DNA from: a virus
Taxonomy: Duplodnaviria > Heunggongvirae > Uroviricota > Caudoviricetes
DNA: 52,029 nt
IMG/VR virus record: IMGVR_UViG_2869965101_000004
Strand: one strand, 5' to 3'
The notes beneath the pieces were generated by a model. The model worked only from the letters and a program-made list of their open reading frames with translations. It was not told the DNA's origin and ran no database searches. This document shows, piece after piece, positions 49,198-52,029 of this stretch. Position 1 is the stretch's first letter. Each line of letters starts with the position of its first letter. Position numbers and translations under genes: made by a program.

Positions 49198-49637
49198 ACT
49201 TTGCCCTCAGACTGGCGCGTGAGATGGGGAGACTCGACTGGCGCGCCATGCTTGCCGGGATGACATCCACCGAATATGCCGACTGGCACCGTTTTTACCG
49301 CACGCATTATTTTCAGGATACCCAGCTGGATATGCATTTTTCCGGGCTGACGTACGCTGTACTCAGCCTGTTTTTTTGCGATCCGGATATGCATCCCTCT
49401 GATTTCAGTCTGCTTGTCCCCCGGCATGAGGAAGAGCAGGTGGAGAGGCCGGATGAGGACAAAATGCTGATGCAGAAAGCGGCAGGACTTGCCGGAGGCG
49501 TCCGGTTCGGTGGGGACGGAGGGCGCGATATTTTATCGTCTGCGGATGTGGCGGATGTCATGGTGGATGATGCCGCATTAATGATGGCTTCAGCGGGGAT
49601 TCCGGGAGGTGTGAGATATGTCCCAGCCGGTTGGTGA
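49179..49637 (+). CDS. T: T segment of the G-T fusion, reached by -1 programmed frameshift
   Basis: Slippery heptamer GGGAAAG at 49173..49179 in the G frame; -1 frame encodes ..LRLAREMGRLDWRAMLAGMTSTEYADWHRFY.. like lambda gpT. Confidence 0.85.
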   Translation, partial: VFDGELNFALRLAREMGRLDWRAMLAGMTSTEYADWHRFYRTHYFQDTQLDMHFSGLTYAVLSLFFCDPDMHPSDFSLLVPRHEEEQVERPDEDKMLMQKAAGLAGGVRFGGDGGRDILSSADVADVMVDDAALMMASAGIPGGVRYVPAGW

Positions 49638-51367
49638 TCTTGTTATTGACCTGAGTCTGGATGCTGTCCGTTTCGATGAGCAGATGAGCCGGGTAAGGCG
49701 TCATTTTTCAGGTCTGGATACCGACGCCAGAAAAACCGCCAGTGCTGTTGAACAGGGCCTGAGCCGCCAGGCGCTGGCTGCACAAAAAGCCGGGATTTCC
49801 GTCGGGCAGTATAAAGCGGCCATGCGAACCCTGCCCGCACAGTTTACGGATATCGCCACGCAGCTTGCAGGTGGTCAGAATCCCTGGCTGATCCTGCTGC
49901 AACAGGGCGGTCAGGTGAAGGACTCCTTCGGCGGGATGATCCCCATGTTCAGGGGGCTTGCCGGTGCGATCACCCTGCCGATGGTCGGGGTCACCTCGCT
50001 GGCGGTGGCGACAGGTGCGCTGGTGTACGCCTGGTACCAGGGAGATTCCACGCTTTCAGCGTTTAATAAAACCCTGGTTCTTTCCGGTAATCAGTCCGGA
50101 CTGACTGCCGATCGTATGCTGACTCTCTCAAGAGCCGGGCAGGCAGCAGGGCTGACGTTTAACCAGGCGAAAGAGTCACTGGCAGCCCTGGTGAATGCCG
50201 GTGTGCGTGGTGGTGAACAGTTTGATGCCATCAACCAGAGTGTCGCGCGTTTTGCGTCTGCATCCGGTGTGGAGGTGGATAAAGTCGCTGAAGCCTTCGG
50301 GAAGCTGACCACTGACCCGACGTCGGGACTGATGGCGATGGCGCGCCAGTTCCGTAACGTGACGGCAGAGCAGATTGCGTATGTTGCACAGCTGCAGCGT
50401 TCCGGAGACGAGGCCGGGGCATTGCAGGCGGCGAACGATATCGCCACGAAAGGCTTTGATGAGCAGACCCGTCGCCTGAAAGAAAACATGGGAACACTGG
50501 AGACCTGGGCGGATAAAACAGGGAAGGCATTCAAATCGATGTGGGATGCCATTCTGGATATCGGTCGTCCTGAATCCTCAGCGGATATGCTCGCCAGTGC
50601 GCAGAAGGCATTTGATGAGGCGGATAAAAAATGGCAGTGGTACCAGAGCCGGAGCCAGCGCCGGGGAAAGACCTCCTCTTTTCGTGCGAACCTTCAGGGG
50701 GCATGGGATGACCGGGAAAATGCCCGTCTGGGTCTGGCAGCGGCCACGCTGCAGTCGGATATGGAAAAAGCCGGTGAACTGGCGGCAAGGGACCGGGCTG
50801 AGCGTGAGGCGTCACAGCTGAAGTATACCGGAGAGGCGCAGAAGGCGTATGAGCGCCTGCAGACGCCGCTGGATAAATATACCGCCCGTCAGAAAGAGCT
50901 GAATAAGGCCCTGAAAGACGGAAAAATCCTGCAGGCGGATTGCAACACGCTGATGGCGTCGGCAAAAAAGGATTATGAATAGACGCTGAAAAAGCCGTCC
51001 GGTGTGAAGGTGTCTGCCGGTGAGCGCCAGGAAGACCGGGCGCATGCAGCCATGCTGGCGCTTGAAACCGAGCTCAGGACGCTGGAAAAACACAGCGGTG
51101 TGAATGAGAAAATCAGCCAGCAGCGCCGGGATTTATGGGAAGCGGAAAATCAGTATGTGGTCCTGAAAGAGGCCGCCACGAAACGGCAGTTATCTGAGCA
51201 GGAAAAATCCCTGCTGGCTCATGAGAAAGAGACGCTGGAGTACAAACGCCAGCTGGCTGAGCTGGGAGACAAGATTGAACACCAGAAGCGGCTGAATGAG
51301 CTGGCACAGCAGGCGGCGCGGTTTGAACAGCAGCAGAGCGCGAAGCAGGCGGCAATCAGCGCAAAAG
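49618..51367 (+). pseudogene. H: tape measure protein H, N-terminal ~580 codons, with in-frame amber codon and truncated by IS911
   Basis: Colinear with lambda gpH; TAG at 50980..50982 where lambda has Ala; reading frame continues to the IS911 end at 51368. Confidence 0.85.
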
Positions 51368-52029
51368 TGAAGTGGTCAACAAAAACTGGCCACCGAGTTA
51401 GAGTTTTTCCAGTATCGATTTTCCGATTCGTTTGGGGGTAACCCACCGTTATATTCGTGCGGTCTTAGTGCGCTGTAATATCCAACGATATAGTCCGTTA
51501 TGGCGTGAGCTGCCTCGCTGAAGCTTACGTAACCCACCACCGGCATCCATTCGTTCTTCAGACTCCTGAAGAAGCGTTCCATTGGGCTGTTATCCCAGCA
51601 GTTTCCGCGCCGGCTCATACTCTGTCTGATCTGGTATCGCCACAATAACTGCCGGAACTGCCTGCTCGTATAATGACTGCCCTGATCGCTGTGGAACATC
51701 ACCCCGCCGGGCTTACCACGGGTTTCCCATGCCATTTCCAGCGCTTTCATGGTGAGCCTGCTGTCCGGCGAGAACGACATGGCCCAGCCCACTGGTTTTC
51801 TTGCGAACAGGTCGAGAACAACGGCGAGGTACGCCCAGCGCTTACCCGTCCAGATACAGGTCACATCACCGCACCACACCTGATTTGGCTCGGTCACGGC
51901 GAACTGCCTTTCAAGGTAGTTAGGGATAGCAACATGTTCATGACCACCACGTTTATACCGGTGAGTCGGCTGCTGACAGCTGACCAGCCCCAGCTCTTTC
52001 ATGAGCCTGCCAGCAAGCCAGCGTCCCAT
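51368..52029 (-). mobile_element. IS911, copy 2 (partial, runs off the window)
   Basis: Same terminal sequence TGAAGTGGTCAACAAAAACTGGCC as copy 1; OrfB is intact at the codon mutated in copy 1. Confidence 0.9.
51376..52029 (-). CDS. IS911 OrfB transposase, C-terminal part (5' end outside window)
   Basis: ...[23 protein letters not shown]... continuous. Confidence 0.8.

Follow-up and report, generated by a model that had tools for sequence, protein, structure and literature searches.

The window, by which the whole analysed stretch of 52,029 nucleotides is meant, ends in the tail genes of a lambda-type prophage. The gene encoding the tape-measure protein, H, is positioned directly downstream of the tail assembly genes G and T (Table 1). 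The frame of T overlaps the start of H by 20 nucleotides and has the same length as T in the intact prophage of Escherichia coli DA33133, and a lambda-type -1 slippery heptamer, GGGAAAG, is located at 49173-49179 near the end of G. Over its final 12.4 kb, the window is identical to the chromosome sequence CP026762.1. The window appears to represent Shigella boydii NCTC 9850, because the adjacent accession, CP026763.1, is a plasmid of that strain. An extended locus (L005), which contains the same DNA as the window prolonged to the right, enabled the right side to be read about 10 kb beyond H.

Table 1 Features of the window that bear on the fate of the tape-measure gene.
Feature	Position	Strand	Basis
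Tail assembly chaperone gene G, 143 aa	48766..49197	+	ORF list; Pfam Phage_TAC_2 on the identical gene in the extended locus L005
Tail assembly gene T frame, 137 aa	49224..49637	+	ORF list; Pfam Phage_tail_T
Tape-measure gene H, codons 1-454 (from ATG), the sole translatable part	49618..50979	+	ORF list, Pfam TMP_2, identity to lambda gpH
Amber codon TAG, derived from TCG (Ser) by C-to-A at 50981	50980..50982	+	Comparison with PhiR12_1, DA33133 and lambda
H codons 456-583, in frame, untranslatable past TAG	50983..51367	+	Frame reading, alignment, weak Pfam TMP_4 match
IS911, first 662 nt of the 1249-nt element, marking the probable H/tfa deletion junction	51368..52029 (to ~52616 past the window)	- (transposase genes)	Whole element read in L005 11751-12999
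Second IS911 copy, same orientation (minus strand)	3220..4468		Sequence comparison; flanks TCC/TCC
Near-perfect (99.9-100%) 4-kb inverted repeat, between the lysis genes and terminase gene A	Arms 29467-33492 and 34202-39493		

The homology of H to the tape-measure proteins of lambda-type phages is evident along the whole of its preserved part. Residues 54-256 match the TMP_2 family (PF06791) with an E-value of 6.2e-69, and residues 1-583 align with residues 1-579 of the 853 residues of lambda gpH with 76% identity (BLASTP). The TAG codon is positioned opposite Ala449 of lambda (...KKDYE-A-TLKKP), which agrees with the preliminary description, where the frame was called colinear with gpH and the stop was placed at an alanine codon of lambda. 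The same description had the frame running on past the stop as far as IS911, and the translation bears this out: 128 more codons are open (TLKKPSGVKVSAGERQED...), and the end of IS911 follows immediately, beginning with TGAAGTGGTCAACAAAAACTGGCC. The frame enters the end of the insertion sequence for 24 codons and terminates at a TAA codon at 51439-51441. Relatives of H have 853-870 codons, and H lacks an uninterrupted open reading frame of about 850-870 codons with the C-terminal domain. About 275 codons, which correspond to the C-terminal third of the protein, are missing from the 3' end of H. H resembles lambda gpH and the E. coli prophage alleles in sequence and in its place after G and T; however, it is not a working member of the gpH family but a pseudogene of it, because TAG stands in place of codon 455 and the gene stops short after codon 583 of about 858. 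The client gene H is dead, yet the G/G-T chaperone arrangement has remained intact.

The nearest intact alleles of H are those of phage PhiR12_1 (PV340549) and of the prophage of E. coli DA33133 (NZ_CP029574), each with 858 codons. They differ from the window at eight and five positions, respectively, over 1750 nt (99.5-99.7% identity). The serine codon of both alleles was changed to the stop by a single substitution. A 583-codon frame that is this similar to intact genes and contains exactly one stop indicates that the TAG is not a chance occurrence. Relative to both close relatives, the Shigella lineage has acquired four changes in H, three of which affect the protein, replacing Arg with Lys at 50171, replacing Tyr, which is also the residue of lambda, with Cys at 50942, and turning Ser into the stop. 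Although few, these derived changes are what relaxed constraint would give.

A sequencing or assembly error concealing a sense codon could produce a single-base difference from the nearest relatives such as the one observed here, and the source assembly belongs to a series from the PacBio era. Substitutions are not the typical kind of PacBio error, however, and eight contigs, obtained in independent projects and on different platforms, share the same TAG. When the 454-residue product was looked up by exact protein match, ten contigs encoded it, and all eight of those listed have the TAG. The eight comprise three complete chromosomes (CP026762.1, CP026795.1, and CP026866.1), the draft assembly LPTT01000272, and Logan assemblies of four separate Illumina SRA runs. 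Both the TAG and the left junction of IS911 were found in LPTT01000272 and in the assembly of SRR8186700, and the TAG alone in the three shorter Illumina assemblies. The agreement of the contigs leads to the rejection of an error, the probability of which is negligible. The sense codon that would have contradicted the preliminary description was not seen in any listed contig, whether it originated from a PacBio or an Illumina project.

The stop is not a conserved feature of H homologues, as the relatives that were read have TCG or GCN at this position. The 55 nucleotides around the TAG were searched for in 5,426 complete E. coli genomes. The region is present in 485 of them (537 matching places), and none of the matches is exact. 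The best matches contain one mismatch, which in the two relatives read is the TCG codon. This distribution also bears on the possibility that the TAG is decoded by a suppressor tRNA of the host or phage, or by programmed read-through, and that H continues to be produced. The 128 open codons that follow the stop would be compatible with such decoding. Nevertheless, the stop in its 55-nt context has no exact match in the E. coli genomes searched and is replaced by TCG in the two close relatives read, and the only tRNAs identified in the window by ARAGORN are tRNA-Met(cat), tRNA-Arg(tcg), and tRNA-Arg(tct) at 22357-22606. The check for an amber suppressor proposed in the preliminary description was thus carried out for the window, and none of its three tRNAs reads UAG. 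Moreover, even a read-through product would be without its 275 C-terminal residues and would finish with 24 residues encoded by the insertion sequence, and all the distal tail genes are absent as well. Suppression and read-through are therefore rejected as very improbable. The question of suppression is moot, since the read-through protein would have neither its C-terminal third nor a native end, and would be made in a prophage without tail-tip genes.

The element that terminates the H frame is an apparently complete IS911. It is 1249 nt long, its ends read TGAAGTGG...CCACTTCA, and it contains an open 100-aa orfA and an open orfB in the 0 and -1 phases, together with an A6G slippery site (TTAAAAAAGG). 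The mechanism of orfA/orfB frameshifting in IS911 has been described (PMC1636345), and the source annotation of the copy in H gives a 389-aa frameshifted fusion product. The copy is 99.9-100% identical over 1249-1250 nt to elements of Shigella plasmids annotated as 'IS3-like element IS911 family transposase'. The near-identity, the terminal inverted repeats beginning TGAAGTGG, and the arrangement of the two frames around the slippery site identify the element as a member of the IS911 family. The 3-bp target duplication is absent: the copy in H is preceded by AAG and followed by GGT. The duplication is a signature of simple insertion and not of membership in the family.

The second IS911 copy of the window provides an internal control for an undisturbed simple insertion. 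It is flanked by a perfect 3-bp repeat, TCC/TCC, and interrupts an otherwise continuous frame of a phage early gene on the minus strand. Unlike this control, the copy in H has no target duplication and is therefore positioned at a rearrangement junction. The two copies point in the same direction, are 48 kb apart, and differ by three substitutions. One of the differences, at position 228 of the element (3447 of the window), introduces a premature stop into orfB of the copy at 3220-4468. Nearly all of the prophage remnant lies between these direct copies, and recombination between them could delete it.

According to the preliminary description, the missing part of H and the distal tail genes should be sought beyond IS911. 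They are not there. The left junction joins GCGCAAAAG to TGAAGTGG, and the right junction joins CCACTTCA to GGTGTTGCTG. The sequence to the right of the element consists of the final 22 codons of tfa, a gene for tail-fibre assembly (VLLNRVDTSTAPDIEWPTSPAE and the stop), about 230 nt of intergenic DNA that contains the junction between the prophage and the chromosome, and the genes potB, potA, pepT, roxA, phoQ, phoP, and purB. The same chromosomal junction is occupied by an intact lambdoid prophage in E. coli O104:H4 2009EL-2071, and the genes there are ordered H, M, L, K, I, J, lom, stf, tfa, potB, potA, pepT, roxA, phoQ, phoP, and purB. The right flank of IS911 is 99% identical to that strain across the 3' end of tfa, the intergenic DNA, and potB. 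In the locus extracted from 2009EL-2071 (L013), the sequence matching the left flank ends at 5070 and that matching the right flank starts at 16001, and thus about 10.9 kb are missing. The missing DNA encodes H from codon 584, M, L, K, I, J, lom, stf, and all of tfa except its last 22 codons. Since the gene order and strand of the right flank are those of the intact prophage, parsimony favours a deletion, in which IS911 would be the scar of a loss of about 11 kb rather than a plain insertion. The earlier statement that H is cut by IS911 consequently stands only in part: the junction at 51368 is real, but it is not a mere insertion, since the duplication is lacking and the end of tfa lies on the far side.

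The same junction could have been formed if IS911 were the breakpoint of an inversion or translocation, with the 3' end of H and the genes from M to stf surviving elsewhere in the chromosome beside another IS911. Pseudogenisation and rearrangement driven by insertion sequences are well known from Shigella genomes, whose chromosomes are heavily rearranged through copies of such elements (PMC8072062). In addition, the left end of the prophage abuts dacC through IS1, which is not the expected site, so at least one rearrangement has occurred here. The right flank, however, has the same strand and order (3' end of tfa, potB, potA, and pepT) as the intact prophage at this site, which is the outcome of a simple deletion and not of an inversion between inverted copies of an insertion sequence. 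An inversion or translocation is therefore improbable. Under the preferred deletion, an IS911-associated event would have removed the 11 kb and left a single, apparently intact element at the junction. This may have happened when an IS911 inserted in H or in tfa made an adjacent deletion, or by recombination of two directly oriented copies, one in H and the other in tfa; the evidence is equally compatible with both routes.

The TAG, the left junction, and the right junction are identical in CP026762.1, CP026795.1, and CP026866.1. The second of these is assigned to S. boydii ATCC BAA-1247, as the neighbouring accession, CP026796.1, is a plasmid of that strain; the assembly GCF_002950275.1 is listed as S. 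boydii in a published paper. Both lesions are therefore older than the last ancestor shared by at least three sequenced strains. Among the genomes searched, none was found to have one lesion without the other. The junction of H and IS911 has no match in a collection of species-representative genomes, and no place in the 5,426 complete E. coli genomes covers both of its halves. An allele with the junction but without the amber codon would encode a product of about 607 aa; a protein search with the 145-aa open reading frame that follows the amber codon returned only tape-measure fragments of up to 253 aa. The claim of the preliminary description that H has suffered two independent lesions is upheld, as a point nonsense mutation is followed 386 nt downstream by the junction with IS911.

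The lesions of H are situated in a prophage that is heavily decayed elsewhere as well. At the left end, an IS1-like element, whose insA/insB ORFs lie at 961-1658, cuts off the gene dacC (D-Ala-D-Ala carboxypeptidase, Peptidase_S11) near 1026. The phage early genes follow the cut dacC and no integrase was found in the window, which indicates that the left end of the prophage is a rearrangement junction. The left end at dacC and the right end at potB do not form one attachment site. Several elements of the IS3 family are dispersed among the early genes, and IS911 in particular is frequent in Shigella chromosomes and also known from the genomes of Shigella phages (PMC5630979). Each arm of the inverted repeat between the lysis genes and terminase gene A contains an IS110-family element (391 aa) and an IS66-family element, and the right arm has a further insertion, a 1257-nt IS3-family element at 35394-36650. 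Between the arms, 709 nt of DNA contain an inverted fragment of the terminase small-subunit gene Nu1. The repeat may be either a real invertible segment bounded by insertion sequences or an artefact of assembly. Since Nu1 is broken and no integrase was seen, both excision and packaging of the prophage have probably been lost.

The late regulatory region of the prophage contains a gene for a 349-aa DNA methyltransferase (N6_N4_Mtase) at 21258-22307, just upstream of the tRNA cluster. A gene for a 626-aa sialate O-acetylesterase-like protein (DUF1737/SASA/DUF6645) lies 870 nt after the cluster, which has the order Met(cat), Arg(tcg), and Arg(tct); the whole spans 22357-25358. In Stx-converting phages, stxAB are flanked by this layout. 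Here the space between the tRNAs and the esterase gene is too small for stxAB, and identification as an Stx-converting prophage was rejected.

The head and proximal tail genes, from A to T, are open and of normal size in the strain of the window. Their openness could be read as a sign of residual selection, but this is contradicted by their breakage in the sister strains. In CP026795.1 (ATCC BAA-1247; L006 1-3688), terminase gene A and portal gene B are each split in two. In CP026866.1 (L004 1-9135), insertions of the IS110, IS66, and IS3 families replace the genes A-D, and FII, U, and V are truncated. The same breakage argues against a function of the remnant for the host. It is conceivable that the 454-residue fragment of H and the open head and proximal-tail module are kept because they benefit the bacterium; if so, they might hinder superinfecting lambdoid phages in building their tails, or provide parts to a satellite or to a different prophage, and the amber codon would define a selected truncated product instead of neutral decay. 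No evidence in favour of this function was found, and it is regarded as highly unlikely.

Several known systems share features with this prophage. Laboratory Ham mutants of lambda also have an amber codon inside H, and their tail assembly is blocked in a non-suppressing host. In contrast to those mutants, the amber codon of the window is natural and the distal tail genes are gone, so the defect is not conditionally rescuable. The cryptic prophages of E. coli K-12 (Rac, DLP12, Qin, and e14) and the defective Stx prophage of S. dysenteriae type 1, which is flanked by insertion sequences (PMC7819885), are likewise lambdoid remnants fixed in the chromosome, with tail genes and integration functions lost through the activity of insertion sequences, deletions, and point mutations. 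The IS911 copy in the nin region of phage Sf6 (PMC5630979) resembles the copy in H in being located in phage-derived Shigella DNA and in having the IS911 ends, orfA/orfB, and the A6G site; however, the copy described here lacks the 3-bp duplication and joins points of the prophage about 11 kb apart. The prophage of the window differs from those of K-12 and S. dysenteriae in its site at potB/potC, in the other genes that it retains, and in its open head and proximal tail modules, and it carries no stx despite its tRNA and esterase layout.

Taken together, H is very probably the dead 5' two-thirds of a lambda-type tape-measure gene, inactivated by two independent lesions and carried by a cryptic lambdoid prophage that occupies the potB/potC site in S. 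boydii; no observation contradicts this reading. In the proposed history, and in either order, a C-to-A transversion turned serine codon 455 into amber and an IS911-associated deletion would have removed the distal tail genes; once tail assembly had become impossible, further changes in H would have been neutral. The prophage cannot make tails. The lesions of H are two among many in a remnant riddled with insertion sequences and have no special meaning for H itself. The gene is an ordinary pseudogene and the prophage a case of ordinary decay, of a kind that is already known and that opens no mechanistic question.

The importance of the locus beyond correct annotation is small. The 454-aa and 145-aa 'proteins' called here are fragments of a pseudogene, IS911 should be annotated as marking a probable deletion of about 11 kb and not an insertion, and the prophage as tail-less and non-inducible as a phage. 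The common lesions could act as a lineage marker for the clade of S. boydii that includes NCTC 9850 and ATCC BAA-1247. The locus adds one more case to the decay of prophages in Shigella by insertion sequences and mutation.
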